A DNA stretch of 52,681 bases, the filler included, from Circinaria calcarea (lineage: Eukaryota): the NCBI GenBank assembly GCA_051942165.1. It is 3 parts of 3 records of this genome, joined end to end, with 100 filler letters (N's around TTAATTAATTAA, not from the genome) between each part and the next. Parts side by side here need not be neighbours in the genome. Positions count along the whole stretch, not along the records: positions 1 to 17,544 come from JAVECS010000265.1; 2 more parts are not named here. One strand, 5' to 3'. Position 1 is the first letter of the stretch. The number at the start of each line of letters is the position of its first letter. Positions 3,853-38,576 of this stretch are shown here, piece by piece. Under the pieces are notes generated by a model. It was not told the origin of the DNA. It ran no database searches and worked only from the letters and a program-made list of their open reading frames with translations. A program made the position numbers and the translations under genes.

Positions 3853-5883
3853 TCAAACACCAAAATGTACGTACGGAACCCAGTGCGATGGAATCCCTAC
3901 CGATCCCGTCCCTTCGCAGTCGTCGTCATCGTTCAGATCGGCATCTCTCGGCAATCTATTCTCCTCATTGCTTGCACTTCGAGCCTTCGTCTTGCCCTCC
4001 GCCAACCGTACGTCTACCTTTCCGACCAATCTACTTCCAAGTCTGGCCTTTTCTAGCATGTTTAACCAACGATCCCGAAGCTCTCTGGTAGCTTTGTGGA
4101 GCCCCCGACACACAGAATCATCTTCCATGCCTCCATCCTTTATCCCTTCGTACGTGATTCTCGCCATTTCCACACAGATCATCATTCACCTCCCACAGTG
4201 TACCGATAACGTGGCGAAACCCTACCAGCTGAAACGCACTGATTAGATGGATACTTTCGTCGAAGAACCTCTTATCCATAATCTGACCAGTCCCACAAGC
4301 CGAGAGATAGGCAAGAATGGTGAGCTTTCTCGAATATTTATTTCTAGAAGAGTAGGTACCGTCAACGGGTTATTTTCCTCGTCTCCTAGAAGTAAATGGC
4401 TCTTGGATGGGTCATCCGTATCTGTGTAGCCATGGCCAGCGAAGTGAAATATCTTAGATTGTGGCAAGTGTGATAGAATATCTTGTTTACCTTGTCCTGA
4501 CTGAATAGAGTTAAATGCCATCGATTTACACAATCTTCGTACCATCTCTATCTCTTTATTTGCAGAAGGAAGCTCAAGCTTCCCTTTATACTTGATAGCG
4601 ACAAGGAGCGCCTGGGCTGAGGTAGCTGGCATAATACGACGTCGGCGACCGTGTATAATTGTCTTGATTGACGAGCTGTAGGAAGACATAACCCTATCAA
4701 GCACCGTTTTAGAAGAACCTTTGCCATGATATCCAGCCGCGTGGAGAGGAAATTTGCTCAAAGGCCCAGTAGGAATCCACCACACGTGAGGCCAATCACC
4801 GTTAGACGGAGACTGAGTGAACCCCAAAGCGTTTAAGATCGGATTCATAACCGTATCCCATAGCCACTCTAGGACTCTAGGATTCCCTAGATCATTAGTC
4901 TGTGTCCTTTGGTTGATCTGTTCGATATTGAGATTAGGTAAAGCTAAGAACCGTATTTCATGCTGCTCAACAAGTATTGCATCGGAGCGGTGCTCGCTAA
5001 CATTAATAACAACAATAGGACCGCATTCTGCAGTATCTAGCATTTCCTTTCTGCTAGGGGCACCTAAGAAGTCCTCAAATCCAGGTTGCTTGCGAACTTC
5101 AGCGATCAGCTGGTCAAGCTCCTTGTCTGCCCTGTAGCGCGAATCTGTTTGGGCCTGCCCGCTTGTTCCGCGACTCTGTTCTGTGGAAGAGATATTGCGT
5201 GAAAAAGGTAGCTCTAGTTTATCGCGAAGACGAACAAATTGCTCAGCCAGCTTCGGATATCTTTCTTGTAGGTCTAGAACGTCTGTCCGCATCTCCTCAA
5301 GAGATGCCGCAAGCACACCACGACCCTGCTCAAGAAATTCCAACGCAACTAATGGCCCTTTCTCCGCATATAATGCTACCGCTGCTGCATCGGAGGCAAA
5401 GCCTACTACTTGGCCAAGCATATGTTGTTTGTCGAAATTCTCAAGGGATCGTAACGTTAATTTAGGAATAAGATGAACAGCAATATTCGAAGCTTCGTAA
5501 GCTTGCTGCCAATATGAAAGAATTGCACAGCATCGAAGAACTTCTCTGCCAGCTGCTACTCGAATAATAGTAAACGAGGTTGGGTGACTTAAAGCGAACT
5601 GATTGAATGAAATAGCTTCCTCAAGGTCGGCCATTGCTCCTGTTCGCGCGTATCTATTACCGAGTCGATTTCCGAGATTGTTTAAACATGCTGCTCGGCT
5701 TGGGTCGTTTTCTGGTATCGCCTCGACAGCTTCCCGTCCGGTTTGAATAGCTTCTTCGAGATCAGCCATTGCTCCTGTTCGCCAGTACGCTTCAACAGCT
5801 TCCCTCCAACTCGAATAGCATTTTGGAGGTCGGCCATCTTGCCCGTGTCGATAGTTAAGTGATATCCTTGTTGACAAGGTCAC
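3853..5883 (-). pseudogene. TPR-repeat + CHAT (caspase-like CD clan) protease, two frameshifts
   Basis: TPR-like repeats (RTGAMADLEEAI x2), WWIPTGPLSKFPLHAAG, SSYSSS, FHFAGHG. After a frameshift near 4313 it reads AYLSACGTG...ESIHLISAFQLVGFRHVIGTLWEVND. A second shift near 4175 leads to ...WVPYVHFGV*. Confidence 0.9.
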
Positions 5884-6388
5884 ATATGGCCGTTATGAAT
5901 TGATTGGAATCCTGATTTCAAGAGACCCGTTGTTACAACACGTCTCCTAAACTTTGGAGTTAGTAGTAATAATGATAGATGAATTTTGAACGGCCGCCGT
6001 TTTAACTTACACAAGATAAATTAGGTAGGATGTACTGAAAGGGGATTGCCGAATGTCATGTAGCAATAATAAGTCTGCGAAGTAGTAAACTGAATCGACA
6101 CTAATGTTTACTGCAACTCAGGGCGTGATAATTTATAGGCGAGGCTGTGTTCTAAACTTATTACCTTCAATGCTCCCTTGTGGTCAGCGGTTGGTTATAA
6201 GCCATGGTCACACTACATTGTAAGGAAACGAAAAGGAGAGGAAGACTGCCTAAGGCTGATTGTAGCCCCGCCTGACCTGCTACGCTATTTGATTGGAGCT
6301 CAATCAGGTAACTACGCTCCCATAGTGGCCTAGACACAAACTGCCCGATGACGGCTTGTATTTGCTGGGCAGACCTGCATTATAGCAG

Positions 6389-8270
6389 TTTGATTAATTG
6401 ATTGATTGATTCTTACTTCGTTCCAGCCAATTAGGCCATGCGGGTATAGCTAATCATGCATTATGCGCATTTATGTACGGGTTATGCAGGTTATGCAGAG
6501 CACACTCCTCTGCTGGCTCATCTACGAACTACCCTTAAAACGTGGTTTATACTACTGACCTTAGCGCTTCCCTTGCCCCACTAAACTGTCCTAGGAGTCC
6601 GGTTTTTAGAATTATGTCGATGGCAGCCCTTAGGGTGTCCGGTTCTCCTAGTAATTTGGTCAGATCCCGGTGCCTGGTACGTCCAAAGGCCTCCCATCTT
6701 TCCTGCGTCCACCTGCTGCACGCCAGTAGTACATGATGCACCCTCTGATCTCCTTCTCCACAGATGCATAGCGGTGTATCGAAGCCTGGGACATTTCTTC
6801 CGTGGAGGAACTCCCCCAAACCGATCTTACCTGTCCTCAGCTGCACCCCGATTGTACTCTAGGGACCTTTAGCTGGTGTTTGGGTCCTCCTGCGGCGTCA
6901 TGGTCTGCCTTTTTTGCTGGTATCGTGTCGGTCGTTGTCCCGCCGGGTTGTGGCTGTCGGTTGTAGATAAAGGAGGGGGGATAGGGATGCTTGCCTCGTA
7001 GATCCGCTGGAAAGGTTTCGGTTCATCGTTTTATTTGCCCCCGTCTCTTCGTTGTAAAGTACCGGTCACACCTCGAGTGCTGCTTTAATCCTCTCCTCCT
7101 TCTTATTCAGCTTACAGGACCTGTCCCAGGCGGGATGTCCATCTTCCCCGCATGCAGCACATTTCAGCTTCGTCTTATCTCCCTTGACACCGCATTCCTT
7201 TATGTCGTGAGGGCCCGTGCAAAAGGCGCACTTCTGGGCTCTCCTGCTCATGGGTGCCATGTGTCTATATTGGTGGCATTGGAAGCATTGTTTCCGCCGG
7301 CACTTCGTATCCCATAGCTCACATTCGTGTATCTTGCACACAAACGCTAGCCTTTTCCTGGTAGCCTCGTTTGCCGTTGATGCTTTGTCGAAGCTCACCA
7401 CCAAAGAGGTATGTGTCGTTCAGGGCAAGCTTGGCCCATGTGATCCTTTTGATCCCTCCTTCCTGCAGTACGTCCATGTTCTCGGCTCTGAGTGCCTCAA
7501 AAGTGACCTCTAGTTTCTCCATATCTACCGCTTTAACCCTGACACCGTGCACTAACACCTGGTATGTTGGAGTGATGATCTCCGCGTCTCGATCGAGTGA
7601 CTGTAGCCATCCTTGGGGTTTCATCAATTCCGCTTTGTTGATGACGTTCGCTATGGCCACGCTGATATCGCCGCTCCACATCTGTCTAGCCGCAATGGCC
7701 CTGCCGCCCGTTTTTCCTTCCAGGGCCTTGTTGATGTTCGCCACTAGAAGCGGTGCCGTCGTGCACCGGATCCTTTCCACTGCCACTGCGTTCTTGATGC
7801 GTACCTTGATATCGCTGTTCGCTCTCGGGTCCATGACCTGCTTCGGCGTAACCGTTTGGTTAGTGGGTGTTGTACTGTACTGTGTTTTCGTGGGGGGAGG
7901 GGGTTACGTGGTTTCCGCGAGCAGCTGTAGCATAAGTCGCTATTTTGTTCGCACTTAAGGCAAAGTGCTCAAGTACTTTATCTACTTTCTCTTCCACGTC
8001 TGCTATCATACTCTTATGTTCGCGTTGTATTTGCTCCTGATTTTCCTAGATTTCCTTTGGATAAGCCTAGTGTTTTCCTTGGACTTCCTTCAGCTGTGCC
8101 TGGACCCTGGCCTGGAGTCTTTCTTCGTGTTCCTGGTTCCCCCTTTCATCGCTGATATGATCAGTTGTTGTAGTGTAGCTAGATTAATGTTCGCGGTGGC
8201 TTCCGGGGGGTCGGACACGTCTGCCATTCTTTTCCCTTCCGAGGTCTCCACCACGCGTCTAGACGCCTAG
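6389..8270 (-). mobile_element. Internally deleted non-LTR retrotransposon (Tad/LINE-like)
   Basis: Broken gag-like ORF1 (ATG ~8227; VLVHGV; zinc knuckles CFQCHQYRH, CAFCTGPH, CAACGEDGH at 7066-7404). It joins directly to the ORF2 C-terminal zinc finger (QLRTGKIGL...CICGEGDQRVHHVLLAC, 6547-6846) and an (AATC)n-type tail at ~6390-6411. The endonuclease and RT core are absent. Confidence 0.85.
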
Positions 8271-9507: not shown

Positions 9508-11565
9508 TTAGTTCTTGATAACAGTTCGTATAGAGATATTACGACAAGCCCATTTGACGGGAGCTTCCTCGCTTTTTGATGGCGAAAGTCTCCCTTTATT
9601 TTCAGTGAAGCTCTCCTGGACCAGTGTACCAAACTTTTCAGCAGAGGAATCTCCTCTAGTCTTAACTTGATTCCACAAGTCCGGCAACTCGATAGAGGAT
9701 ACTCTACGCACAGGGCTAGTACTGACGATGAACTTCAGGATGTCATCTGCTTGCACGCCGCCGCTTTCCTTGATCCGCTGCGGAACTTTCATCCGGGGCA
9801 GTAGTCGAATCGTTCCCGAAGTCGTGATGGCTTCAGAAGTGTTTTTGGGCAGCGCATCCTGTGTACAAACGGTCTCGCACTCCTTGCTACGTGGATATAT
9901 CCTCCTAATCTGTTTAAGAGGCATCAAATTCAAGAGCGTGAAGTACAGGACACCATTGGTGTTGTTTTGGAATGTAATAACGATCTTTTCTTGATCCTGA
10001 ACTTCGATAAAGTTTTCCTTTAGGACGTTGCTGGGGTTATTCTTGGCTTGAACGCCAATACTGAAATTGGATTCAGATAGAGCATTGACATTTCTGTTAT
10101 CTAGAGCCTGAACGAAAGCGAATTTGGCTAGATGTTCGAGTATGGTCACGACCCCTTTCTCCGCTTCCGCGTTTACTCTTTCCATACGGGGAAGATTCGG
10201 AATCTTCTGGTCCTTGTAATCCAGAATTCCGAATTGGTTGTTGGTAAGAGTAACCGAGAAACAGGGAACATCGAAAGGGATTAGCTCATCCACCGGAAGC
10301 TCATGAAGCCACATATTTTGCTCAACCATTTGGTTCAAGGTGTTTTCCGCTTCAGGATACAGCTTCACATGCGCTCGAGGCTTGGCCAGGACTGTAAGAG
10401 CAGCCGAACATCCTAACTTTATCTGAGGACAATCTTCTTTTGGTGTTTTGGCGACGATTCTTTCCGCTACTGAGTGTGCAGCCTGGACGTCTGTGATCAC
10501 AACTTTGCTAACCTGCTCTTTAGCCCCTTCGACAGTGCAGACTTCATATTCATCACCAACACAAACTCCGTGAATAAGCCCTGCGTTCAGCCACAGCTGC
10601 CGATTATCCAAGACCTTGATCACTTCGCAGGCAGACCCTGAATTTTTTATCGCAGCTTTAGACCCCATGAACACAGCCGCTTGATTACCTAGTAGAATGG
10701 GATTCTGCGCGGGGATCTTGGTGTACATTCTGGCACAGGCTCGCCTGTAAATCAAATCATAGGTGATCTCCACGATTTGGTTTCTCAAGTAGAACTCGAG
10801 AGCCTCGAGTATATGATATGACAAGCCACCATGATGTTTTCCTCTGCTTGCCTCAATCTCCTTAGCGACCTCATGAGGGCCACAGGCCGTAATCAGAGCA
10901 TAACCCCGAGGATTTAAGAGCCAGTGACTTTTTGAAATAGAATCGCGGAGAGTGTCGCAGTTGGAATCTGCGGACATTGTGAGCATCGATGCTTGCAAAG
11001 GAAACTCGGCGTCAACCTCGGCGTTCCACGGTATGCTGCGGACGGTATTCGAATCGTTGCGAGAGATGCTGCCAGAGTGACACGCATCCACAACCATAGT
11101 AAGGCTCAGTCCGCTCTGCACCATATCATCCAGCAACCGGGCAAGCTCTACCCCTCGCAGATAGCGTATACGAAACCTAGCATGACGATCGAGAAGCACC
11201 AAGGCAGCATCCATCTCATAGTGCTCCATATAGGCTAACTCCGAATCCCTGGTTGGCTTTAGAGTTCCATGGCCCGAGTAATGAATGTGTACGACATCTC
11301 CTGAGGACGCTTTGGTGGTGATTTGCTTCAGTGCAGTAGTAACATTCTCCCATGTAGGCCATATTCCTTTAGGTTCCGGAGGTTCTACCTGAGCCGAGTC
11401 TCCAGTAACAGAAGCTACCAATTTAATGATTTCAAGGTCCTTGTAGCGGTTTTGCAAAGTGATTTCGATCTCGTTCACATCATTCACTCCACCGCGAAGC
11501 CTGTTAGCTGATTCAGGGTAGAAATCAATACCAATAAGAACTAGCCATGCTTTGAAGTTCGGCAT
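9508..11565 (-). CDS. Caspase-family (peptidase C14) protein with long C-terminal extension, 685 aa, no intron needed
   Basis: WLVLIGIDFY, LRGGVNDV, catalytic dyad motifs HYSGHG and DACHSG, ACGPHEVAKE, GGLSYH, QNPIL; open throughout. Confidence 0.92.
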   Translation of the reverse strand: MPNFKAWLVLIGIDFYPESANRLRGGVNDVNEIEITLQNRYKDLEIIKLVASVTGDSAQVEPPEPKGIWPTWENVTTALKQITTKASSGDVVHIHYSGHGTLKPTRDSELAYMEHYEMDAALVLLDRHARFRIRYLRGVELARLLDDMVQSGLSLTMVVDACHSGSISRNDSNTVRSIPWNAEVDAEFPLQASMLTMSADSNCDTLRDSISKSHWLLNPRGYALITACGPHEVAKEIEASRGKHHGGLSYHILEALEFYLRNQIVEITYDLIYRRACARMYTKIPAQNPILLGNQAAVFMGSKAAIKNSGSACEVIKVLDNRQLWLNAGLIHGVCVGDEYEVCTVEGAKEQVSKVVITDVQAAHSVAERIVAKTPKEDCPQIKLGCSAALTVLAKPRAHVKLYPEAENTLNQMVEQNMWLHELPVDELIPFDVPCFSVTLTNNQFGILDYKDQKIPNLPRMERVNAEAEKGVVTILEHLAKFAFVQALDNRNVNALSESNFSIGVQAKNNPSNVLKENFIEVQDQEKIVITFQNNTNGVLYFTLLNLMPLKQIRRIYPRSKECETVCTQDALPKNTSEAITTSGTIRLLPRMKVPQRIKESGGVQADDILKFIVSTSPVRRVSSIELPDLWNQVKTRGDSSAEKFGTLVQESFTENKGRLSPSKSEEAPVKWACRNISIRTVIKN

Positions 11566-11599
11566 TAGACATATATCAGGAAATCAACCGCAGACAATG

Positions 11600-12312
11600 A
11601 TAGGCAAGATGCTGTAGGCAAAATACTTGTGTGGCACGGCTGGTGATGTGTTTGTTATGGTGCGGGGAAGCTCTAGAATAGGACCGAAGAACAACAACCT
11701 CTGAGCTATGATGCTGATCTATTCTAGTCCAGAGCTGCGCATTACATTGTTTCCATGCCCACTACGCCAGGTTCCTGCACATCGCTCATCGTCGCCGAGG
11801 AAGTTGCCTCCATCAGGGGGCACTGTGGCTATGTAGCCCTGACCACCGATCTGGAGGGCCAAGCCTCTCCTCGAGGCTCTCAAGTTTCGCAGCCGCGGTT
11901 GCGCACACCCAATAGAGCCAGCACGAAGCGCGCTGCTCGTGGGAGAAGGAGATAATGCAGAACAACTGACCTTTGCAGACCTTAATACGGTGGTCACGGA
12001 CCATTCCAATACACGAATCGTGGATCTCTCTGTCAGCAGAGATACAATTGCTTAGCCTGGCGAACAAGGGCATTCATCTAGTAAGCGGATTCCAGCATTC
12101 TGGCATTTTATTGGGACGCTGTAGTGAGCAGATAATGAGGCAGCAGTTGAGATTGCGGGGAAACTTTACGGGAATTGCTTCAGGGCGTTGTAGTTGCGGA
12201 GCATAAGGAGAGGGAGAAGAGGGGGCGGTGGCGAGCGTTGAATGAAGCCGTGCTTGCTGTCGAAATGAAGGGAATACTGGTCGGAGGGCGAAGCCACAAT
12301 TGTTTATAGCAC
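11600..12312 (+). pseudogene. Heavily decayed CHAT protease domain
   Basis: Motifs spread across frames: IVSMPTTPG, VAEEVASI, PIEPARSALLVGEGDNAEQLTFADL, LSLANKGIHLVSGFQ, DNEAAVEIAGKLY, LNEAVLA. Boundaries are approximate. Confidence 0.7.
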
Positions 12313-12526
12313 TGCGCTGAGAGGTGAGCTAAAGCAGTGGCAATGCCTACGGGCAAACTTTGACTGAGGGACTATACTATGCGTGGATGCCCACGCCTTT
12401 ATATAGTGCAGTGAGGGTGATTACACTGGAAGGTGTGATCCAACAATGTGCTATGCAGCGCCAATGGGTTGTACCTATCCTATCATGCGACAATACTTGG
12501 ATGAAGGTATCACCGCTTTTGCGGAA

Positions 12527-12890
12527 TCAATTTTTCTGCTCCAACCTCGTCTCCTCATATAACGCCCCATTATCAACGGAAGCACCATCCGCTCGAGTCA
12601 GACTATACTTTATCGGCGTCGAGGTGGTATCAACATTGGCTATTGTATACGGTCCTCTACCGGCGCCGCCGGCAGCTTTAATGTAGATGTTTCTATCGTC
12701 AAGATGGAACTTCGGAGGCTGCGGTATTACACAGTCAGCATAGGGCCGAAGTAATGACTGAAACACTCACCGTCGCGCTTGCGGTCACATAGGGACGTTC
12801 TCCGGAGATCTCGAAGTCCTCGTCGAAGCGACGCCTTTGGGCTGTTACGAAGTTTGAAGTGATAGCTTTGAGGACAACGTACTGTGACAT
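12527..12890 (-). CDS. Small (~87 aa) spliced protein, beta-rich SH3/Tudor-like pattern
   Basis: ATG at 12890; two canonical introns (GTACGT...AG, GTGAGT...GCTGAC...CAG). Spliced product MSQRRFDEDFEISGERPYVTASATPPKFHLDDRNIYIKAAGGAGRGPYTIANVDTTSTPIKYSLTRADGASVDNGALYEETRLEQKN. The fold assignment is inference. Confidence 0.65.
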
Positions 12891-13569
12891 GGCGTTTACC
12901 ACTAGAATGAAGGGACCAAGTGGTTCAGGCTTTGGGAGCCTGGGTTTCGATGTAGGCAGTCGTTAATCTAGAGCGGTTAGTATTCATAATTTGTTGAAGA
13001 ATTGGAACCCTGCTAAAGCGTACAGGCGATAGAATTCTGGATATGCGCTGAAGGTAGTTTTTGATACCTTGCCTAGTAAAGTAATTCAGAATCAGTCTGG
13101 CCGAAGAAGCGCGGCAGTTTAATAAACCAGGCATCAAGGAAAGGCAATTCGTAAGGCTTCAACGCTTACGGGGCTCAGTCAACTAGATCACAGTAATCGG
13201 GCACACGACAGCATGCAGAGTTTATGAATCAGGGCGTAAGCTGATGCGGCCTTGCATTATGATTGGGCTTCTTCTACGTGGCTGAGCAATAAGACTATGC
13301 GGAGACAGCCTCAATTGGTCGATTGGCCAACTTGTCGCAACGTTGCCTTTCATCCTCAAGGACAAGATGTTCTATGCCGTTTGCCTAATAAAGCTAACAA
13401 GGGATGTTCAGCGCTTTAAATGGATTGCCGTCCTGACCTTGACAGCGTTGGGAGTTACCTGGCCCACATACGCAGGTTCAGTGCAGCCCCAGCTTAGCCG
13501 CTGTATCTCGAACGCCAAAGATGATAACATAAAAAGATATTAAAATAATTTGCCAGGCAGGTGTATGAG

Positions 13570-14664
13570 ATGATGGACAACGACAAAGCGCAAACAAGTC
13601 AGTCCCTTTTGTTGCACTTTCAGGATGCCGTCACTAAATGGAGTTGCTAGTCGAGCGGTCTCCTCCGGGATATCCACAGTTTTCTGGACTTATCGGCGCG
13701 CATCCAGACTTCAGTGTCTCGAGTCGTTTCTCGGTAGTTCGCGCGAGACTACTGTTGCAGAAGTTGCAGCGCGTGGCGGCGTTAGAGAAAAGGCTTGAGG
13801 AGCTAGATTTCCAGGAGCAATGGCCACTCTATCTGGGCAGTTTCCAGTCCGATGGAAATGAGGCGAGGGGCCAAGTCTTGGAGGAGTTGGATGAAGCTCT
13901 GAGAGATTACGGTGAGTTCCCAGGGCTCTTTATTAGCTACAGGAACACCTTTTGCAGGTGCAGGTTTACAGAAGAAAGATGAGGTGAATATTGCAACCCC
14001 CTTTAATACTAAAGCAGATGATATGGTGAAGAGAAGTGTCGAGATATCGAATCTACCGCAAGCACCACAGAGAAGTATCACTAGTCTTTTGAATTGGGTC
14101 AATGGGACAGGCAACATCTCCCGGAAGGAAACGGCGTTTCTTTATCGCCCTGACCTGTGTGCTGTCGGGGGCTCCAACGGCCATGGCTTGGCCTGGATGG
14201 AATCGGTTGTTGAGCGAGTTTGGATCCGAATACCTCAATATTTAAAAGAAGTATGCCAGTCTTCCCATCTTGTTGCCTATGCCTTCTGAATTGTTGCAGC
14301 CTTGGACTTCAGTTACTTCTTCCAGGTCTCGAATTTTTATCCTCGAGGGACAGAAGCTACACGTAATAGCTCAGTCCTGCAATACAGCCATGCTGACTCT
14401 TCTGCTGCTTATACCAATTGTCATCATGCGTTCAACTGGCAGTGCCGCCATTCAGATAATTTGCATCATGCTAAACTCAATCTTGTTCACCGCTATCTTA
14501 TCCGGGCCCATGAATGCCAGACCCGGAGAAGTCTTTAGTGCTAGTGCAACGTAATGCCCTCCAAATACTAGAAGAAGTTTATTACTAATTTCGAGGCCAG
14601 GTATACAGCATTATTAATAGTATTTTTAAGCTCAACGGGTACAGCAGATGGACAGAAGCAGTAA
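13570..14664 (+). CDS. DUF6594 family protein (N-terminal helical region + ~3 C-terminal TM helices), 5 exons
   Basis: PPGYPQFSGLI...SRFSVVRARLLLQKLQRVAALEKRLEELD...LEELDEALRDYD; C-terminal hydrophobic helices ending EVFSASATYTALLIVFLS; four canonical introns give an open frame. Confidence 0.8.
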
Positions 14665-16440: not shown

Positions 16441-17405
16441 CTATTTACAGACACGCAAAAGAACCTTATGCACCGATGCAGTGTGGTTTTTGAACGCCAT
16501 CACGCCCGGCAAAATCACTTTGCTTAGTGCACACTGCGGATGTTTACAAGGGACCTCGTCGCGTGGTGCGTAACTTGATAGATGCGCGTCCTCAACGTGA
16601 TCCATCATCTTGCTAGGTCTGCAGTACTCGAACATTCGTTCTCCATAGGATTTGGCCTCGTTGCCCAGGCAAAAGGTGCATTGAGTGGGCTTGCATATTA
16701 TTGGAAACAAATCCTCCCGGTCCTCGTCACACATGTCCGATACTACTTCTAGATCGTCTGCTTCTTTTGGGAAAACATGTTTCGGTCTACCGCGACGCCG
16801 GCTCTCCTGTCGGCCACATAACATTGCCCTGGCTTTGATGGCCTCGAGTCTGCGAACATGCTTCTCATGATTCGTCATGGCGGCCGGGGACTCGCAGGTC
16901 ATTTGGACAACGAAACCCCGCTCAGGGATATTGTATTGAAGAGGCTCCGCGGGCGCGATATCTTCTTCGGGCGCTGTGATTGAGTCGTCGGCAAACTGGG
17001 CTTCGAGTATAGCGGTGTCGGCATTCCTGAAATACCGCTTCCGGGCCTTATCGAGCATTCTGTTTCGACGATTCGTTTTTGCACGGTGCAACATGGCGTC
17101 AACCTTCTTTTTTTCTTTCAGCCAAGGTTCATTCCGTGGAGCCTTTCGAACGAATCTATACTTCTCACGAAGCTTCAGAGTAAGAGTCCTGCTCTCGTGG
17201 CTGAGCTGCATTACACGCTTGCTCTTGGCAAGCTTTCTCGAATCCTCCTCGGATAATTTGGTCGGCGCGTTAGGATCCACGGTAAGGGTCATTTGTCTGG
17301 CTAGTTTTTGCACGACTTCGTCGGAAGGGCGGCCCAGAAAGGCAGCTTGTGTGTTAAATCGGACCTCCCGATCGAGGTAGTACCCGACCGCCCCTTGCTT
17401 AGAGT
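16441..17405 (-). pseudogene. DUF3435 tyrosine recombinase (Starship 'captain'), C-terminal half only
   Basis: YYLDREVRFNTQAAFLG, MTLTVDPNAP, ARKRYFRNADT, YNIPERG, LCGRQESRR, FPIICKPTQCTFCLGN, MMDHVEDAH, CKHPQC, FKNHTASVH. Similarity appears to stop near 17405, upstream of which is unrelated TE-like sequence and the gap. Confidence 0.88.
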
Positions 17406-17544
17406 CCCTAGCTATATCTCCTCTATAGCTCGGCATTTCCGAAGAGACTTTTTTGAGCATGAGGCGGCAGGGAGTGGCCCCAGTGTGGAAGCTAACACTC
17501 CTACCCCAAAAACAAGGTACCTATCCACCCCCCCCCCTCATACC

Positions 17545-18544: not shown

Positions 18545-20068
18545 TTAATCGGTTGTTATAGTATACACCTGACGCGCAGCTTTAGGAATTTTATTCCCAC
18601 CCCCGCCGCCTTGCTCAATCTCCATCATTTCTTGGGCCCATTCGCAAATTGCAATGACCAACCCCTCTACCTGAATTTCGGTGTTGTTAGCATGAAATGC
18701 CACTCTGACTCTACTCTGGCCTTTTGGAACTGTCGGGTAGTCTACAGGGAAGGCACAAAACCCAGAGAATTGCAGGTGAAAGACAAGCCAATAGCTTTGT
18801 CGTTGGCGGGTCCAAATAGGGACAATATGGGTTAGGGAAGGCTGTTCTTCCCAGTCTTCGCTGAGAGGAACAGAGAGAATCCCGCGCTCTGTGGCTTCCT
18901 TCCAGATTGCATTCGAACTTATCGTCTTGAAGAAGTGTTTGACAAGAAATTGGACTTTGTCCTGAGCCTAGAAGGAAGTCAGCTAGCTACCGAGGAGTCA
19001 AGACCAAAAGAGAATGGTCGAGATCGATTGCTTCCAACTACTCACAGTTTTTGTTTGACCCGCCTTCATAAGATTATATCCCGCTCGAGCTGCAGCGACG
19101 ACCGAAAAAGCCGGTGCGGTGGTGTAAATAACAGGACGCGCAAGGTTGATCAATGCGCTCTTGAGGGTCTTGTTCCCCAAAATAATGGCTATGGCAGAGT
19201 TAACATCAATGCTGATGATGATTTTGGTGGTATTACCTCCAGATGCAGACAAGGCTTTGCCGAACGTATGCAATCGAATCGCCACCTCTTTCTCAAGACC
19301 AAGCTCGCAGACTAGCCCTGCGCCCTTCAGACCAATGACGCCTGTGCTGTGCGCTTCGTCCACAAGGAACTGCGCATTTCCGCCCGGGAAGATTTCCTTG
19401 GCGGCTTGGATGAGCTCCGTCAGCGGACAGATATCGCCATCCATACTATAAAATGACTCGACGGCTACTATGACACACCGTTTCCCTTGCCTAATCAAAG
19501 GCTGAGAGTCGTATACAGATATCATCGCGTCTCGGAAAGATTCAACATCATTATGGCGGAACGAGAATCTAGTAATAGCCTGGGTTTGCTGCATCCCGTC
19601 ATGGGTACTTGCGTGGATCAATTCATCATACACGATCGCATCGCCCGGACGCGGTATCGCTGCAAAAATGGCTAGGTTGGCCTCGAAGCCTGATCCAGTG
19701 ATGAGACCTGCTTCTGCTCCATGGAACTGCGCAATCTCATCCTCAACAGTCTCCAGGTACTTGTAATTTCCATCCATCACTCGAGAACTTCCGGCGCCGG
19801 GTGGAATGTCGGGATGGCGTTCTAACTCCCGCATAAATTCCGCGCGCAGGGCCCCGCTGGCTCCTAGAGAAAGAGTATCGTTCGAGCTGAAGTCGACGGC
19901 GTCGCCATCTCTCCAGATGTTGGTTTTGATCGTGTACAATCTATGATCTCGTCTTCGGACATCAAGGGCTTCTTCAAGATTACGATAAAAGGCCGGAGCA
20001 CCCTTCATTGCCGGCGCCTTCAACTTCTGGGCCTTCATCCATTCCGCCAACATCATGGAGGCCGACAT
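18545..20068 (-). CDS. PLP-dependent alpha-oxoamine synthase (AONS/BioF-like, class II aminotransferase), 3 exons
   Basis: VDFSSNDTLSL, GAGSSRVMDG, SGFEAN, YDELIHAS, FRHND, ESFYSMDGD, VDEAHSTG, PLP-lysine motif HTFGKALSASGA (48-nt intron 19189-19236). A second intron at ~18968-19045 leads to a last exon with YPTVPKGQSRVRVAFHA; stop at 18545. Confidence 0.92.
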
Positions 20069-20278
20069 GGCAACGGGCCGATGTTGTTGAAAGTTCGAAG
20101 CCTAGGATGGGAATTTGGCGTGTCCGGTACACAGCCTACAATCTCCTTCCCGAGAGCCCATCCCAGGTTAAGTTAAATGGTTCCTGCGGGTAGCAATGAT
20201 TCCGAATTCCATCCGACGACGTTGAGAATGAGCACGAGCACACACTGGCTTATGCTCGGGTACTTATATCATACCGAC

Positions 20279-20353
20279 TCGGATCCCGAACCAATTGCGG
20301 GATGATGCTTGTTTCATCCGCTCCAGCCCTCCAAAGGTGGTCTCGGATTCCGA
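20279..20353. promoter_or_regulatory. Two TCGG-N3-CCGA sites (Zn2Cys6-type) upstream of the oxoamine synthase
   Basis: TCGGATCCCGA (20279-20289) and TCGGATTCCGA (20343-20353), both followed by ACCA. Confidence 0.6.
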
Positions 20354-20891
20354 ACCAGTGCGAGGCCCTTGTTGGTGCGCTACCGTTCTTGTTATTGATT
20401 GGACCGAAGGCTTTCAAGCGACGCCGAAAAGTGGCTTTGTTAAGCCGCGCTCCAACCATGGCATTGGCCACAGATGCAACGTAGGCATGTTACAACCTGG
20501 ACCCAACCATGGATGATCATCTCTACCGGTACACAAACTTTGCTACGTTTCTTCAATTGGGGCATTTCGCAAACTTTGTCATGTCAATGTAATGTAAATC
20601 TAGGGTCGGAATAATTATGACCCCAGCCAAGGAGCCCCCGTCTAGATCTATATAGTATTAGTGTATATGTACATCGGAGCTCTATTATATTCGTGGACCT
20701 TTTCTGACCAATACCAGGGCACAGATTTGTGTCAGCATGGTAGGCCTGCCACCTGGGCCTTACTATATCAGGCTTAAGGTATCAGCGCCGGGCTCCCGCA
20801 CATAATAAAACTCTTACCAAATTTAGCGAAATGCCCCAAATTTAACTTGCGGGAACCATCATCTCCGGCGGAGGTCTTATGTACGCATCCA

Positions 20892-23800
20892 CTAAGCACC
20901 GTTGTTGCCTGGGCCATCCGCTAGGGCAGCTTGCATCAGCCCTTGCGCGGCATGTTGGCCAAGTGCTTTTAAAGTCCCCATTCCGAGCATCTCAAGCACG
21001 CTTATATCAAAACCAAAAACTTGCTTCCACCAAGCACGAAGCTCGATTCCCACCAGGGAGTCCATACCCAGGTCCACCAGTGATAAGGAGGCATTCAAGT
21101 CCTCTTCCGGTTTTAAAAGAAGAGCAAACAACCTCTTGCCTATCTCGTTTGCAAAGAAAGCCGCAGCGTCCGCCGTTTTTAAAATGGAGATGTCGGCCTT
21201 CACGCTGGCTATGTGTGCTTTGAGGCTCGCGCTGGACGCCGCAGTGTCGACATGGCCGCCAGCTGTGTTATGATATATGCCCATGCGGCGGTCCTTCCTC
21301 CATATGGCTCGATTGACTGGGCTATCAAGCGGGACGGTTGAGCCAAGTCCGAGAGCGAAGCTGTTGCTGTCGACAAAGCGTGGCCCATGGTTCCTGCGTT
21401 TATTCTCCCCAATGTTCTTTCGTGTCATTGCCACTACTAACGCGTCAAGCACTTCCTGCTCTTTCAGCGCCTTAAATCCCGTTGCGGCCATCTTCTGCAT
21501 CAATTCCGGATTTTGGGATATGTAGCCTACTTCCGCAACTGCACCAATATCAATCGCGGAGGCAGGCAGGCCGAGATTTGTTCGGTATTGGACGAAGGCA
21601 TCCAAGAAGGTATTTCCGCTCGCATAGTTGGCTTGACCTGGCTGTCCAATTATGCCGGACAGAGAACTGAACAGCACGAAGAAGTCGAGATCCAGGCCTG
21701 CAGATACTGTGGCATTGTGAAGGTTCCAGGTCCCGCCAACTTTTGGTACACTGGCAGCATTCCATTGTTCCAGCGTCATTTTGGAGAAAGCTTCATCTCG
21801 GAGCACCATTGACATCTGTAATATTCCTCTGAGAGGGCGCGTTGCTCCTTCAATAGCTCTGGTTACATCCGCGGCATTTGTGACACTTCCCTGGATAAGC
21901 TGAACCTGGCAACCCATGCTATTGAGTTCATGAACGAATAGCTCATCACCAGGACCCAAGCCAGCATTTCGAGATAGGTATACCAAATGGCGGGCTCCGT
22001 GCTCGACCATCCATGTAGAGATTGCGCGACCCAACCCTCCAAGGCCACCGACAAGTAGGTATGAAGCAGAATCAGACAGTTTTAGGGTCTTTGGTGGATC
22101 CAAGATTGTTGCGTTGAAGTCTGCGCTTTCTGGAGACTTCCGTATAGGTATGCAAATTCTGCCTATGTGTTGACCCGGCTGCATATACCTGAAAGCGTCA
22201 TATGGTGATGCCACATCGAAAATTTCCACTGGGTGAATAGGTGAAATACGTCCCTTCTCCAAGTGTTCCAAGATCAAGTTGAACAGTCTATCGCGGTGTC
22301 AATTAATTGGGCCCTTTATAACCCAAGTGAAGGATCTGAAGAACTTACCGCTTCATCATGAAAGGCTTTTGGCGGAGGGCATCTGCATCAACGCAGCAGT
22401 AGCTGCGATTGGCGAGGAAGGCGTTCATATTGAGTTTGCCAAAGCCTAATAGATCTCTCTTTCCAATCTCAACCATCTTGCCGAAAGGGGCGACACATTC
22501 CCAGCTTGCGTGCAAAAGCTCGCCAGAGAGTGAGTTTAGCACTATGTCGACGCCGTTACGCTCCGTTTCGCGCATGACGCCTTCCATGAAAGAGTCATCT
22601 CTAGAATTGAAAATTCTGTTCCTTGGAATGTTGAAGATCTTCATCAGGTGCTCCACTTTCTCTTGGCTACCAACGGTCACGTATATCTCCGCCTCTATCA
22701 TTTGTGCGAGTTGAATTGCTGCAAGACCTACTCCGCCACATGCGCTGTGGATGAGTACAGACTACACTGCGTTAGAATAGAACTTGCTAGAGCGGCGAGT
22801 GCCTGAGGAGAGTTACAGACCTGTCCTTTCTCAAGGCCACCGACATCCATTAAGGAGTGCATCGCAGTCATGTATGGGAAAAACATGGTTGAGGCCTCGA
22901 TGAAACTCAAATCGTCTGGTATCTTCGCACATAGTAGCTCCGAGGTAGTAATGGTAGTTGAGAACATATGGTTATCGACGATAGCTACGCGATCGCCGAC
23001 CCGGACAGTCTTCACTTGCGATCCAATTTGGCGAACGATGCCCGCTCCTTCGAGACCAAGGACGATCCCCTGAGGTAAATGAACAATGTTCATTGCAACA
23101 AGAACATCCTGATAATCTCGTCAGTCTTCGTCATTCTCTGGTAAATAAGGGAAAGCAGCAATTTACCCTGAAGTTTAGACCAGCTGCATACACCTCAACC
23201 TCCAATCCATCCGGCTGCAATTGCGGCAGGGCCGGTTTTCCAGCCCAGTACAAAGTGCTCAGACGCCCTGGAACACTTATCTCCAGCATTGCCCTGTCGC
23301 TAGGTTCTGATGTCAAGAGATCGTCGGACAGTGCGAAAGGGTAAAACCTCCCGACGTTGACAACGCCGTCATAGATAGAATATTCGAAGTCAGGCTCAAG
23401 TAAATCGGTTATATCCCGCTTTTCGAATTTTGCGAAAAGCCGAACTACTTGAGCAGCCGATGAGTCAATATTGTCCACCTCGCAGGTGGCGAAGTCGATC
23501 AACAACTCGGAGCGCACAGTTCGAGCGGTTCCAATGACTTGCGCAAACCGAGGATCTTGGCAATGCATTTGAGAAAGTCGTGTGACCCAAAACACGCCTG
23601 AGTTATCTAGGTTATGGAGAAAGGTTTTAAACGAGTCGAAGATGGTGGATTCAATGTTCTCGAAGAATGGTTCATCCCTGTCTAAAAGAGCAATAACATC
23701 CTGATTAGGCGGGGGAGGGTCGTGGATTGAACATCTGATGATTTCATAGCCTTGCATTTCCAGCTCCTGCAAAATAGGACCTGGGTCCATGGTTGTGTCG

Positions 23801-26800
23801 CGGCACAGAAGACTGACGCGTCTTGTTAGACTATGTTCAGTTGAAGGTTTGACGATCATGACGGCGTTCAGCTGAGAAGGCTCAGCTGAGTCTAGTATCA
23901 CGGTTTCTGTATTTTCATATCCCGCGGCTATCAGCTCGTTCTGCCATCTTCTCGTGTCAGCATAAGGCTCGTCGAGTCTGCCGTCCTCGATTCCACACCA
24001 CCACCGTGGATGAGTGCCGAAGATATAGTTGATCCACTTCGAAGATGGACAGAGTTCCTGCAACAACAAACGGCCAGCTGGGTGGAGAAGCTTTCTGATG
24101 TTCCTCAGACTTACACCGATGCTTCGAGTTTCATGGATAGCATTGCTTGCAATAACGAGATCATACTGGTGACCTTTGAAGCCCTGCTCTAACGGATCAT
24201 CGTTGATGTCTAAGGTCGCGTATTCCATGTTTGGGAACTTTAGCTGGGTTTCCTCTGCAGAAATGAAGCCTTTAGACACAAATGTATACTTTGAGCAGAG
24301 AGCCCGTCCATTTGGCAGCGTCAGGTTCTTCAAGATGCTACTTGACGGGGAGCTTCTCCAAGATCCAATTTCCAAAACCCGTAGATTGGGCTTGCAGTGG
24401 GCCAATCCCTGAATGAACAACGATATGTCGCAGTTATTTATAAATTCGTAGAGATCCGCAATCGTCTCGCTAAGAATATCCTCCCATGAAGAAACATGAC
24501 CTGAGAATATAGCACCGATACTAACGGAGACCTTTTGAAGCGCCGCCGCTGCGGAAGATGCAGGGGTCTCAGCGAGGCTATGAACCAAGCAATCGATTCT
24601 CTCAGATAGCGTTTCATTGTCTAGATCACTGAGCGAAGATATATCTAGCGACTTGAGTTGATCATCGATCCATTGATGGAACCTGTGCAAATGAGACCTT
24701 TCCGCAGTTAATTCTGCCAGGCGTCTTTGTGAATGGACCATGCATAAATAGCCCAACGTTTCCAACGAAGATGTGTATAGGGAGCGATCAATCGACGGCT
24801 TGATAAGGTCTTTGATGTCTATGAAGTCAATATCAAAGCCCCATTCTTGACGAGCCGCGGCATGTGTATCGCTCGCTTCCGTTGAATCTAAATTGTCGAC
24901 AGCTGAAAGCTTTAACCCCGAGATGCTTAGGACGGTGATACCGTCAGCGATGCCTCGGGCCTCGCCAACCACAGAGCTAGCCGCAAATTTGGTCGTTGCG
25001 CCCACGATTAAATTTGAGGAACAGCGAGAGACGCTGAAATTGTCGCAGCTAGTCGGAAGTCGATTCTTAAATTTACGAGCTTCTCCGTTCGTGAAAGCAA
25101 TTCCCATTAATTGTAGGGCGGCATCGATAAGCGCAGGATAAATGTGGTACTTGTTTGCCTCAGCATGCTCGTTATTAAGCACCTCTCCCGTCGCCTGCTG
25201 AGTTGTGGTGCCAACCGAAACGTCTACCAGATTGCGGAATGCTGGGCCTAGATCTAGCCCAGCTCGTCGGAGGGTATCGAACCACTTCCGCATACCGATC
25301 TTACGAGGAAGAGCCTCGGGGCTTTGAAAAGACCCCAAAGACTCAGTTTGCGCCATGGCTTCACCTACGCAATGCTTGGTCCAAGTATGTCCGTTGTGGG
25401 AAGCAATAGTAAACTCCCACCACTTACTATCCAGCGTATCCGTCAAACGATGTGGACGAAAAGTAGTGATCATCTCAATTGGCTTTCCGTCAGGTACCAC
25501 AAGCGCCATACTTACAATGACATGTCGAAGTTGGAATGTCTCATTTATTCTAGTGACCTGTCGAACTGCTTCGCCGGCCATTGCTATATACCCAGCAAAG
25601 GGGAATACAATATCATCGCCGACCTTGTGATCACGAACCCAGGGCGCGTTGCTGAGGTGGAAAAGGTTTCTCCAAGAAGGCTCAATATCAGTACTCTCTA
25701 CTATCCTGACGCCTAGGAGATCGTGGTGAGGGTATTCCCGCAGTCGATAATCTTTACTAAGTCGTGACTCATACCAGTAGCTCTCTTCATGGTCCCAAGG
25801 ATATAGAGGCAGATTCGAAAGGCAGGAGCCGGTAGGTATTAGTGCATTCAAATCGATTGGAACTTGAAGTGTGTAGAGTTTGCCAGCAGTAGAAAGCAGC
25901 GATTCAACGCAATTCCGATTCCTGATTAGAGTTGAAGTGTAAGGAGCACTATTTGTTTCCTGGGTCAGAATTTGCCTTAAAGGACCGGCAAGGGCGGAGT
26001 GAGGCCCGATTTCTAGGAAAACCGGATTCTTTCCAATCGGATGCTGAAGTATGCAAGAAACTGCTGCTCTGAACAATACAGGGGATTCTAAATTTCGTTG
26101 CCAGTATCTCGAGCTGAGCGTAGTTGACTTATCCAAAAGGCCGCCAGTAACGCTGGAGAAGAATAACTTTGTCGGCTCTTTCTCGTTCATCATATTTCCA
26201 AGCAAAGATTGGTAATGCGCTCCAAACTCGGCCATGTGATAGGAGTGGTAAGCTTTATCAACTTGCAGCTTTCGTATCATCACATCTGGTTGTGATTTAT
26301 GAATATCCGTAATAACAGCTTCCACCTTGTCAACGTCTCCTGAAATCGTCACACTCTTGGGCGAGTTGTCGCAAGCGATGACAACATCCGCAATAAGGTA
26401 TTTCTCGGTCTCCTCCCAACTCATTCCTATTGCTACCATAGCCCCCGGCCTCTTCTGAAGGGTGGTTGTAGCTCCACGATGTACCGCATTTATAATTGCG
26501 TCTTTGGCGGTGAGGGCACCAGCTGCATAAGCTCCGGCAATTTCACCACTAGAGTGACCAACGACGGCATCCGGATATATTCCTAGAGCTGCGAGTGTAT
26601 CTACCAGCGCAATCTGAATTGCAGTACAGAGTGGCTGAGAGAACTCCGCGGCGTGAACTCGACTTTTCTTACCTGTTTTGCGAAGTTCTTCCTCAATCTT
26701 CCACTCGGGGGCATGCTCATGCACTCCTTGCAAGTATCCATCCAGGCGTTGGATGCTGTTCAAGAAGGTCGGGTCAGAGTCCATTAAATCCCGGCCCATC

Positions 26801-28824
26801 CGAGGCCATTGTGCTCCCTGGCCTGTAAAGACCATTATTACCGTGGGTGGCTTTGCTGATTTTGTCACTGGAGATGTTGTCCCAATGCCACCTTTACTCG
26901 CGATGGCGAAGGTTCTGTGGGACAAATGCTGCCTTTTATTTGCCAATGTGTAGGCAATGTCCCCAATATCCTTTGGTTCCCTTTCAACAAAGTCTCGGTA
27001 ATTGTTTACCATGGTTGTGAGAGCTTTCTGGGAATTTGCTGAGAACAGAAGTAGTTGCGGCTTATCAGGTGCTCGTTTCGTAACAGTCGACACATTAAAG
27101 CTGGCGGCAGAGTCGATGACTGCATGTGCATTGGTTCCACCCACGCCAAATGAATTGACACTGGCTCGCTCCAAGCGACCTTGTGGCCAGGGTGTCGGCT
27201 CAATAGGAACAGTCAGCTTCGCGGACTCGAATGGTATGGCCGGGTTGGGACGCAAGAACTTGATATTGGGTGGAATAGTACTGTTTTCAAGGGCGAGAAC
27301 TACTTTTATAACTGATAAGAGCCCAGACGCACCCTCTGTGTGTCCGAAGTTTGGTTTGATGGATCCGATATAGACACCTGAGTCTCCGAAGACCCGTCCA
27401 ACTGCAGTTGTCTCAATGGGATCCCCAACCGGGGTCCCAGTCCCATGGCATTCCACAAATCCTGTTTTCGAGAAGTCTGTGGTGCCTGCTACTTCGTATG
27501 CCCTTCTCATCAATGCCTGCTGGGAATTTGAGCTAGGGACCGTCATCCCAGGTGTCTTGCCATCATGGTTGGTTGCGGTTCCTTTGATCACCGCTCGGAT
27601 TGGATTTCCGTCTCTCAGTGCATCATCTAGCCTTTTGATATAGATAGCCGTAATCGCTTCACCACGAGCGTAGCCGTTAGCATCGGCCGAGAAGGTGTTG
27701 CAGGAACCGTCCTTTGAAAGCACAGTCTGCTCTGTCATACTTATTGTTGCGCCTGGAGCCATGATTAGATTTGCGCCTCCTACAATGGCAGAGTCGCAGT
27801 CGCCCCTTGAAATGGCTACGCACGCTTCGTGGAGGGCCACAAGTGAGGATGAGCACGCCGTCCGAGTGGTCATACTAGAATAATCAGAATCGAGAAGTAA
27901 GACATTGCAGGCGTAGACAAACCTTGGGCCCTGTAAGTCCATCTCGTATGAAACACGGTTAGATAGTGCAAAATCTCCGAAGCCGGTGTAACGATAGGGA
28001 CCCCAGTTCTGGGTTTCTCTCGCAAACATCTCGCACCAATCCTCACCAAGGCTGCCCATATAGCAGCCTACACGCTTACCCCTCCAGGCTGTCTCACCGG
28101 CGTCTTCGAAGCACTCCCTTGCCACCTCTAGCATAAGCCGCTGTTGTGGATCTGTTCGCTCTACTTCCAGCCGAGGCATGCTGAAAAATGACGTGTCAAG
28201 AGCTCCAATGTCGTCGTCTAGGAAATAGCCGTATTCGGTAGCCACAGTCCCATGCTTTCCGGTAGGGTCATGGAAGGCTGCCACATTATATCGATGATCG
28301 GGAACCCGACCACGTGCATCGCCTCCGGCAAGCAAGAATTCCCACAGCTGCTGAGGCGTCCTTAGTCCAGCTGGGAGACGAAGTGCCATGCCACATATTG
28401 CTATGGGGGGTTGAATATGGCTCTGGACACCATCGACGGTCTCGCCGTTGAGAGAGCGGCCATTGGGATGTTCGCCGGACTGCGTTGAGCCAGTTGATCC
28501 AGTCTGACCGTTGACTAACTCCCCTTCAATAAGGTGGCCGTTCGTACACTTGCCGGTCTGGGCTGAGACATTGGATCCGGCCTGACCATTGACAGCCGCT
28601 TCGTCGATAGAATGACCATTTATGTATCCGCTAGATCGCGTCAAACCATTCAAGGCAGCCTGACCATTGGTGCTCGAGCTATTCACCGGAGAACCACGGT
28701 TGGAATCCGGGTCAAACAGGGCCAAGCAACTGGGGGTAGGTCGACCGTTGATGTGTAAGGTTTCCCCGGGACGATAGCCATTGATTGCTGCCTCATATCC
28801 AGTAACTGATTCAAGAACACTCAT
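20892..28824 (-). CDS. Highly reducing iterative type I PKS (KS-AT-DH-cMT(degenerate)-ER-KR-ACP), multi-exon
   Basis: KS TACSSS/HGTGT/GHTEGASG; AT GHSSGEIA/AYHSYHM; DH RDHKVGDDIVFP; cMT LEIGSWRS; ER AAGLNFR and LIHSACGGVG (across introns); KR GGLGGLG and GQANYASGN; ACP DLGMDSL. Confidence 0.95.
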
Positions 28825-29166
28825 TGTCTGGCATGCAAGCTGTTCTCCACCAGTGTCAGCAGGAAAGACGGCTTGATGTGCAGTAGGGACATAGGATTGA
28901 CGGGGAAGCAGGTATATTTAACAAAGCAAGCGATTCCCAAGCAAGTTCGGCGGGATTCAGATTAAACTAAGCGGCTTAAAGTCCGATGGCAAGCCAGTCA
29001 CATTCTCGTTGTGTATCATATGCCCTATGAGAGCCCTGTAGGGTTTTACGCCGCTTGGCTAGGTCTTACTTTAACCCTCCACTAGGGAGGGCGAAGCAGG
29101 CAGCCTTGCGTTCCTGTCTTCGGTCAAATGCAGAGATTGTGCTCCCTTCCGCTATACCTGCCGGTC

Positions 29167-29187
29167 ATATTTCGGAATCCGAAATAT
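29167..29187. promoter_or_regulatory. Perfect 21-bp palindrome containing TCGG-N3-CCGA in the divergent PKS/Pth11-like promoter
   Basis: ATATTTCGGA-A-TCCGAAATAT. Confidence 0.65.
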
Positions 29188-29339
29188 ACTCTCCGCCTTG
29201 CTTGACTGCTATCACCATCACGAGACCAAGATATACTGTCGTCGGAATCAAGCTTCGTTTGCTCGACTGCTCGTTGTTCTGTATTGAATCGCTTGCAAGA
29301 GCTAATTGCGGGGCTCTCACCAAAGCGACTCCGACCGCC

Positions 29340-30729: not shown

Positions 30730-31009
30730 AGTCGATGATACAAGCTTTCAACGTGTACCGTTCGAGACGCCCTAGGCTAGGTAGACGTGATAGGCTGCAG
30801 AGGAGTGTTCGTAGGTATGTGCAAGGGCGCTGCAATCTTTGGGGCCTAATGAGGAATATATTAGGTCCCGATTGGTGATAGCACGGTTACATAGGGTATA
30901 GTTGAACTGTTGCCCTAGGCTCAATATAAAAGGAATATATTGAACTCGTTATGGTTCTATAAGCATGCTAATCTAAAGAACGAGGAACAGCCTGCTTATA
31001 CAAAGTTCC

Positions 31010-31140
31010 GCTCATTCATGCTCATGCCCTGAGCACCCATGAGCACCGGTCCTGCTCATCTATGCTCATACCCTGAACACTCATGAGCACTGGCTCTGCT
31101 CATCTATGCTCATACCCTGAACACCCATGAGCACCGGGGT
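31010..31140. repeat. ~44-bp tandem repeat (~3 copies) with internal GCTCAT/ATGAGC inverted motifs
   Basis: CTGCTCATCTATGCTCATACCCTGAACAC(T/C)CATGAGCAC(T/C)GG repeated at ~31052 and ~31096, plus a partial upstream copy. Confidence 0.85.
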
Positions 31141-38460: not shown

Positions 38461-38576
38461 TACCTATCCACAGATGTATATCATGTTAGCTAACCGATTC
38501 CTCTCCCAAGGCTCTGTAGCTTGCTTGCCACGAGCGGAGCTTAGAAACCGCACAAGTCATCAGAGTACGTGGATTC

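Follow-up and report, generated by a model that had tools for sequence, protein, structure and literature searches.

Four gene families lie grouped together in many fungi: a caspase-like protease, a small spliced microprotein, a DUF6594 transmembrane (TM) protein and a CHAT protease fused to tetratricopeptide repeats (TPR-CHAT). We characterized this grouping in a 52,681-nucleotide stretch of DNA from Circinaria calcarea (assembly GCA_051942165.1), referred to in its entirety as the window, and in related loci of fungi and bacteria. The stable unit consists of caspase, microprotein and DUF6594, and TPR-CHAT is a specific but exchangeable partner of this core trio. The window itself carries a partly decayed copy. 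The fungal module (Pezizomycotina) is real, conserved and apparently undescribed in the literature: no paper on the cluster was found in a search that covered main texts and few subscription papers, and clusters of this type might be listed among the neighbourhood datasets of PMC8851545.

Conservation of the gene grouping across fungi

Caspase relatives from a metagenome scan (best 80 of 407 kept) were compared by means of an approximate, midpoint-rooted tree, which splits a fungal clade, clade A, from the bacterial sequences and from a small second fungal clade. Score and neighbours decided the placement of L036 and L056, which lacked the length for inclusion in the tree. With three duplicate pairs merged and three loci from the C. 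calcarea genome added, clade A comprises 25 loci, among which L017 and L018 possibly form a further duplicate. The microprotein was present at 18 of these loci, DUF6594 at 14 and a TPR/CHAT gene within 4 kb likewise at 14 (two seen just as TPRs at a contig end), with a fifteenth TPR/CHAT at 7.1 kb. All four families occurred together at 10/25 loci, and many of the misses are short contigs. The chance expectation per locus, based on gene densities of the C. calcarea genome, is under 1%. An earlier note on this DNA had set co-occurrence above chance as a test beforehand, and we observed it in fungi for each of the four families and in bacteria for CHAT with caspase.

Gene order and strand vary widely among clade-A loci, with CHAT usually being the very next gene to the caspase (50-720 bp at 10 loci). 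Independent pairs from four fungi, namely Trapelia, Cudoniella, Madurella and a member of the Mollisiaceae, have adjacent NCBI locus tags, and a Lasiosphaeria annotation fuses caspase and DUF6594. Within the window's own caspase subfamily, DUF6594 linkage was seen nowhere but at the window (the downstream part of L015 is cut off and L016 is without it). Pfam scans of 20 fungal neighbour open reading frames (ORFs) revealed no CRISPR/CBASS, sigma factor or kinase partners. The layout of the window is found intact at L029 and L030, where a caspase of the second fungal clade stands head-to-head with TPR-CHAT, followed by the microprotein tail-to-tail. At these two loci a second-clade caspase is combined with a clade-A cluster.

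Pairwise identities of the core genes correlate strongly, with Mantel rho values of 0.80 for caspase-microprotein (18 loci), 0.65 for caspase-DUF6594 (14 loci) and 0.72 for microprotein-DUF6594 (13 loci), each at p 0.0005, which is the permutation floor. Host kinship can inflate such correlations, and the CHAT genes of the same loci serve as an internal control. No co-divergence of CHAT with any core gene was found (rho 0.11, 0.10 and -0.16 at 13, 10 and 9 loci) in what is a small and noisy test, including two loci with two CHATs and one second-clade locus. CHAT is further absent from L016, L019, L027 and L033 despite at least 7 kb on both sides. Taken together, the lack of CHAT co-divergence and the four well-covered loci without CHAT identify the trio as the stable unit. 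The window itself displays this contrast, with 68% identity between its CHAT and that of the paralogous C126 cluster but 29% between the two caspases.

Additional copies of the cluster exist within the C. calcarea genome. The paralogous C126 cluster contains an intact 1008-aa TPR-CHAT, a caspase, the microprotein and DUF6594. Its caspase lies 50 bp from TPR-CHAT, tail-to-tail, carries one frameshift as assembled and is 29% identical to the window caspase. C3445 holds a caspase and a microprotein, and on C4870 a CHAT end stands tail-to-tail with the C-terminus of a caspase. DUF6594 matches were found on 28 contigs, of which the 26 beyond the window and C126 were examined. A protease-like gene flanks DUF6594 at 14/28 loci, with three different protease families being represented. 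CHAT flanks both clade-A caspase/DUF6594 loci and none of the 26 others, in a genome with only about five CHAT loci in total. A second, spliced and divergent caspase-like family, mostly missed by Pfam, flanks DUF6594 at 8 loci (8 of its 11 matches in the genome are on DUF6594 contigs). Retropepsin-like aspartyl protease ORFs adjoin DUF6594 at four loci (L177, L180, L188, L196), two of them assigned by Pfam and two presumably of this type, judging by a DTG motif alone. The microprotein also occurs at two loci of the second caspase-like family, and all five microprotein copies found in the genome adjoin a caspase-like gene. The second-family member on C42 has a C-terminal kinase-like domain, and at L183:1780-4389 an 870-aa TPR-containing ORF without a protease match lies head-to-head with DUF6594.

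The caspase-like protease

The earlier note described the window caspase as intact, and we confirm this: the 684-aa single ORF matches Pfam Peptidase_C14 (E 3.8e-15, 56.7 bits, cut-off 21.4) and keeps both the His and the Cys motif. Invariant residues are D29, H99, D160, C162, R169 and R176 (P0001 numbering), with H99 and C162 being invariant across 80 sequences compared. An AlphaFold2 model (predicted local distance difference test, pLDDT, 83.8) gives the domain order as a catalytic domain (ca. residues 1-300), a beta-barrel (ca. 310-392), an alpha/beta domain and a C-terminal immunoglobulin (Ig)-like domain. The model matches metacaspase 9 (Z 25.6, root-mean-square deviation 2.9, 248 aligned residues), with further matches to FlgT-type/ATPase N-terminal barrels and Ig-like domains. 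Caspase fold and His-Cys dyad place the protein in Peptidase C14. The nearest named relatives are from the lichen fungi Trapelia (50%) and Varicellaria (46%).

The caspase fold, the His-Cys dyad and the acidic S1 residues are common to the window caspase and to metacaspases and orthocaspases (Yca1, AtMC4/9, GSU0716). Unlike these proteins, the window caspase has no N-terminal prodomain, has fixed gene partners and carries three extra C-terminal domains which it has in common, over full length, with bacterial proteins. Type I fungal metacaspases (Yca1-like) have a proline-rich N-terminal prodomain and lack a long C-terminal extension. The window caspase does not have this layout, its catalytic domain beginning at residue 6, with ca. 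380 aa in three further domains behind it. Two conserved S1 aspartates, as are typical of Arg/Lys-specific metacaspases, suggest that the caspase is Arg/Lys-specific. An arginine at Cys+7 is found in 45/45 fungal and 87/90 bacterial caspase sequences and sits in a low-pLDDT loop, and a second invariant arginine is located at Cys+14.

Microprotein and DUF6594

The spliced protein of about 87 residues put forward in the earlier note was found to have exactly 87 aa, encoded by three exons with GT-AG introns. A two-exon model of 103 aa was rejected because homologues have a tiny first exon. The window microprotein shares 58% identity with Trapelia MMC30_007663 over 88 aa, and against its two closest relatives the proportion of synonymous differences (pS) is ca. 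0.72 and that of non-synonymous differences (pN) ca. 0.24. The family comprises at least 431 clusters. The window microprotein has an acidic N-terminal arm containing a conserved Arg-Pro, followed by a small predicted beta-barrel. Among 79 full-length family members, 65 have the Arg and 51 the Pro. No Pfam, PDB or Atlas assignment was obtained, with Atlas leads to R67 dihydrofolate reductase all scoring under 0.9. Two relatives bear the automatic name 'TUDOR domain', and the barrel is possibly SH3/Tudor-like. A complex prediction for caspase and microprotein of the Trapelia cognate pair, made without alignments, scored 0.00, which speaks neither for nor against binding. One annotated 858-aa protein (P0330) has the microprotein barrel at its N-terminus, followed by TPRs, and is either a true fusion or a merged gene model. 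Its C-terminal region contains a GDSG motif which we take to be serine-protease-like.

The DUF6594 gene is divergent from the microprotein gene, as the earlier note had indicated, and codes for a 273-aa product with no internal stop and three hydrophobic peaks. The predicted form is a cytoplasmic helical hairpin with many invariant arginines, followed by three C-terminal TM helices. AlphaFold2 predicts the Madurella homologue P0225 (pLDDT 85.8) to be helical over almost its entire length. Foldseek returned no match at E <= 0.001, just generic helical-hairpin matches (Z <= 9.3), so that a relation to a known effector could not be set. Gasdermin pore domains are beta-rich, and no gasdermin fold was found in DUF6594, whose confident model is helical with three TM helices. 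No literature on DUF6594 was found, with subscription papers mostly outside coverage.

CHAT genes of the window

Both CHAT genes of the window are broken while the core genes are intact. The earlier note saw the caspase diverging from a decayed CHAT gene. The CHAT remnant is real, scoring 16.8 bits against a fungal CHAT profile compared with 3.3 bits for the best of 200 shuffles x 6 frames (1200 in total). A tblastx search against C126 had missed it before profile and shuffles confirmed it. Of the CHAT domain just the later part is left, with no TPRs and both catalytic motifs lost. Owing to this truncation the remnant starts ca. 180 bp from the caspase ATG, so that 'head-to-head' refers to a leftover and not to two genes with functional paired promoters. 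A second TPR-CHAT, placed by the earlier note 3.6 kb beyond the caspase, is present at a distance of 3583 bp and is a pseudogene as assembled, which that note did not flag. Its lesions are a frameshift near 4317, just ahead of the catalytic Cys motif, another near 4172 and a stop at 4243. Its CHAT domain is 68% identical to that of the intact C126 TPR-CHAT. Pfam, NCBIfam and PADLOC scans detected no SAVED sensor in the window and C126 CHATs, both being TPR-fused. As both window CHATs are broken, the cascade discussed below cannot run in cis from this copy, and either activation would need a CHAT in trans, with an intact one located on C126, or this copy is in decay.

Bacterial homologues

The four-domain caspase architecture is common, over full length, to proteins from Cyanobacteria, Acidobacteria and other groups, with three bacterial homologues matching the PADLOC 'caspase' model end to end. 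Neither the microprotein nor DUF6594 was found at any of 132 non-fungal caspase loci. A CHAT-like ORF lies within 5 kb at 58/132 of these loci, and at 26/43 among those with both flanks complete. A possible drift of the iterated bacterial CHAT profile to WD40 was countered by a Pfam recheck of 57 of the 58 loci, where 55 passed, one fell below the cut-off and one gave no match. Pfam-confirmed CHAT within 5 kb (55/132) compares with about 7% expected from 184 CHAT matches in 34.9 Mb of five genomes of the bacterial set, an enrichment of about six-fold which is not a precise rate since the loci are not independent (many are from Microcoleus). Those bacterial CHAT partners that were checked are either nSTAND-WD40 fusions or long proteins of TPR type, the three fully scanned all being CHAT-nSTAND-WD40. 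At seven loci a common sigma-70-region-4-like gene is added near caspase and CHAT (weak Pfam matches in 4/7), and a zf-HC2 anti-sigma-like gene was present in two tested of these loci. Other genes beside the caspase are a phage-lysozyme and peptidoglycan-binding gene at ca. 21 cyanobacteria-type loci (e.g. L092:7858-8679) and an LCAT/PGAP1-like lipase gene at ca. 13 (e.g. L082:194-1759).

Proposed mechanism and alternatives

Our best reading of these genes is a death or defence relay in which TPR-CHAT activates the caspase, the microprotein restrains it and DUF6594 serves as its membrane substrate. As a whole, this reading is tentative, and we place it just short of an even chance. Activation of the caspase through cleavage by TPR-CHAT, taken alone, is slightly probable, while the role of DUF6594 as caspase substrate and membrane effector is possible and somewhat doubtful. 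The microprotein may act as an inhibitor or adaptor of the caspase. In the proposed sequence of events, the TPR repeats would sense a non-self or damage signal and thereby switch on the CHAT protease, which would then cut the caspase zymogen in the flexible loop past the catalytic Cys, at or near the invariant arginines at Cys+7 and Cys+14. This cut is modelled on the way SAVED-CHAT activates PCaspase. PCaspase is reportedly cut seven residues past its catalytic Cys, a point that is unconfirmed ('R153' had 0 matches in the preprint). The microprotein would hold the Arg/Lys-specific caspase in check, with its Arg-Pro arm possibly acting as a poorly cleavable pseudo-substrate. The freed caspase would cut the cytoplasmic part of DUF6594, disturbing the membrane and causing the cell to stop or die. 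A more far-reaching version is unlikely in its entirety, namely a fungal initiator-executioner cascade with a swappable TPR-CHAT, an executioner caspase with full-length bacterial homologues, an Arg-Pro pseudo-substrate microprotein and DUF6594 as a new all-helical class of protease-activated death effectors served by at least three protease families.

Several observations weigh against the proposed relay. CHAT does not co-diverge with the core and is missing from four well-covered loci, of which L016 has no DUF6594 either in the 10 kb to each side. As the two window CHATs are broken and the C126 caspase is frameshifted, an intact set of all four genes occurs at no locus of the genome as assembled. 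DUF6594 resembles no solved pore-former in fold searches, and no protease neighbour was seen at about half of the genome's DUF6594 loci, some of which are on short contigs. Finally, the comparison of the window caspase with PCaspase extends to family level. The CHAT-to-caspase module suggested in the earlier note is partly supported: the four families are linked above chance, with CHAT as a swappable partner that is broken in this copy.

The strongest alternative, itself distinctly unlikely, is that the caspase is the executioner, with a broad range like PCaspase, while DUF6594 is a membrane anchor or second brake instead of a toxic effector, and the microprotein an inhibitor. According to the preprint (10.1101/2023.06.23.546230), PCaspase has a broad range and becomes toxic in the presence of SAVED-CHAT alone. 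The absence of DUF6594 from all bacterial homologue loci, the retention of caspase and microprotein without DUF6594 at L016 and L023, and the missing pore-former fold match would fit as well. However, DUF6594 co-diverges with the caspase (rho 0.65) and also pairs with unrelated retropepsin-like proteases, so that a shared substrate fits better than a protease-specific inhibitor.

Less likely still is a non-lethal switch based on regulated proteolysis, where the cytoplasmic helical domain of DUF6594 would be released or remodelled for signalling or trafficking. The sigma/anti-sigma pairs beside bacterial CHAT and caspase genes (seven sigma-like loci), the large size of the DUF6594 family and its many invariant cytoplasmic arginines are consistent with such a role. 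Yet pseudogenes are frequent, gene order is shuffled, mobile elements are adjacent (DUF3435, and Helitron at C126) and HET, HeLo and NACHT genes lie near, all of which is typical of immune loci, and neither a DNA-binding nor a signalling domain was detected in DUF6594. The least likely alternative, a functional three-gene core with CHAT as a bystander co-located via mobile or immune islands and no CHAT-to-caspase step, would explain the missing co-divergence, the dead window CHATs beside an intact core and the four loci without CHAT, but is at odds with the usual position of CHAT as the very next gene, its restriction to clade-A caspase loci in a genome with so few CHATs and the enriched CHAT-caspase pairing in bacteria.

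Two known systems are related to the proposed relay. In Haliangium ochraceum, SAVED-CHAT activates PCaspase in a cascade with PCi (Steens et al., 10.1101/2023.06.23.546230). This system likewise clusters a sensor-fused CHAT gene with genes for a Peptidase C14 enzyme and for a small protein; CHAT and C14 genes cluster at 14/25 fungal and 55/132 non-fungal loci in our set, and bacterial homologues of the window caspase also pair with CHAT, some together with a sigma-like gene. In contrast to it, the fungal module is eukaryotic, has TPRs instead of a SAVED sensor, lacks CRISPR/CBASS, sigma or kinase genes in its core and adds the gene for a three-TM DUF6594 protein, while its small protein is a predicted barrel, not CI-2-like as PCi. 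Fungal gasdermin/HET-Q2-like protease clusters include a TPR-CHAT, Q2L-6, with gasdermin Q1-6 (Clave et al. 2022, PMC8851545). They resemble our module in having a protease beside a candidate membrane effector, TPR-CHAT sensor proteases of ca. 1000 aa and an effector family repeatedly linked to differing protease types. They differ in that no gasdermin was seen here, DUF6594 is all-helical with three TM helices, and a second protease and a microprotein stand between sensor and effector. The literature compared also includes PMC12881547, PMC13304501 and 10.1101/2021.06.07.447441. The module is best filed as a variant of protease-controlled death/defence clusters. New here, beyond the trio, are the specific exchangeable TPR-CHAT partner, the bacterial parallel and the pairing of DUF6594 with three protease families.

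Genomic context

The features of the window and of related loci are compiled in Table 1. The half-gene of DUF3435 is cut by the contig end, next to the assembly gap at 17545, and points toward the cluster. This orientation fits a Starship captain, which sits at the 5' end of its element and faces into the cargo. At the opposite contig end lie genes for a ferric reductase and a kinase-like protein. No Starship element boundaries were seen on the 17.5-kb contig, and it is plausible that the cluster is Starship cargo. A Helitron RepHel remnant is located directly upstream of the C126 cluster (G000:C126:1711-5504, L006), and the module therefore has no fixed link to Starships. The ORF remnant between caspase and TPR-CHAT is presumably a retroelement fragment. 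Past the gap, window positions 18998-32810 hold a secondary-metabolite cluster with a highly reducing polyketide synthase, a class I/II pyridoxal phosphate-dependent aminotransferase-type gene and a major facilitator superfamily transporter. Positions 35570-50482 are immune-rich, with a third CHAT gene that a stop divides (35570-37324), a pair of HET-domain genes, one HeLo-domain gene and one NACHT-WD40 gene.

Table 1. Positions of the genes and loci discussed in the text
Feature	Position	Strand	Details
C14 caspase-like protease gene, intact	9508..11562	(-)	single intronless ORF; 684 aa; Pfam Peptidase_C14
87-aa microprotein gene, intact	12527..12890	(-)	exons 12890-12883, 12834-12771, 12718-12527; GT-AG introns
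DUF6594 gene, intact	13638..14664	(+)	exons 13638-13911, 14018-14250, 14300-14550, 14601-14664; Pfam PF20237 on three exons
CHAT remnant, decayed, 5'-truncated	11746..12181	(+)	profile score and colinear tblastn fragments in three frames
TPR-CHAT pseudogene (as assembled)	3853..5925	(-)	two frameshifts, stop, most TPRs lost
ORF remnant between caspase and TPR-CHAT	7319..7903	(-)	no Pfam match
DUF3435 (Starship captain-type) gene, 3' half	16441..17520	(-)	Pfam PF11917 positions 234-417
Second fungal clade of four-domain caspase	L063, L029:2768-4873, L030:2774-4861		head-to-head with intact TPR-CHAT
Second caspase-like family with DUF6594	C260, C834, C807, C1578, C1406, C1475, C42, C401 (L175, L176, L181, L184, L186, L190, L193, L195)		
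CHAT, sigma-70-region-4-like gene and caspase	L066, L074, L077, L080, L081, L114, L172		Haliangium-like layout without SAVED

Implications

Published fungal proteolytic death pathways are, in the parts of the literature compared, one-step, with a protease cutting a gasdermin. If the relay proposed here is true, a two-protease system with its own small regulator would be the fungal counterpart of initiator and executioner caspases and of bacterial SAVED-CHAT/PCaspase. The candidate cut sites and the candidate inhibitory motif named above, together with candidate intact four-gene loci (L028, L034, L042 and L062, where TPR-CHAT and caspase are intact), make the cascade idea directly testable. The relay would further provide a function for two orphan families, DUF6594, with 28 loci in one genome, and the microprotein, with its at least 431 clusters.

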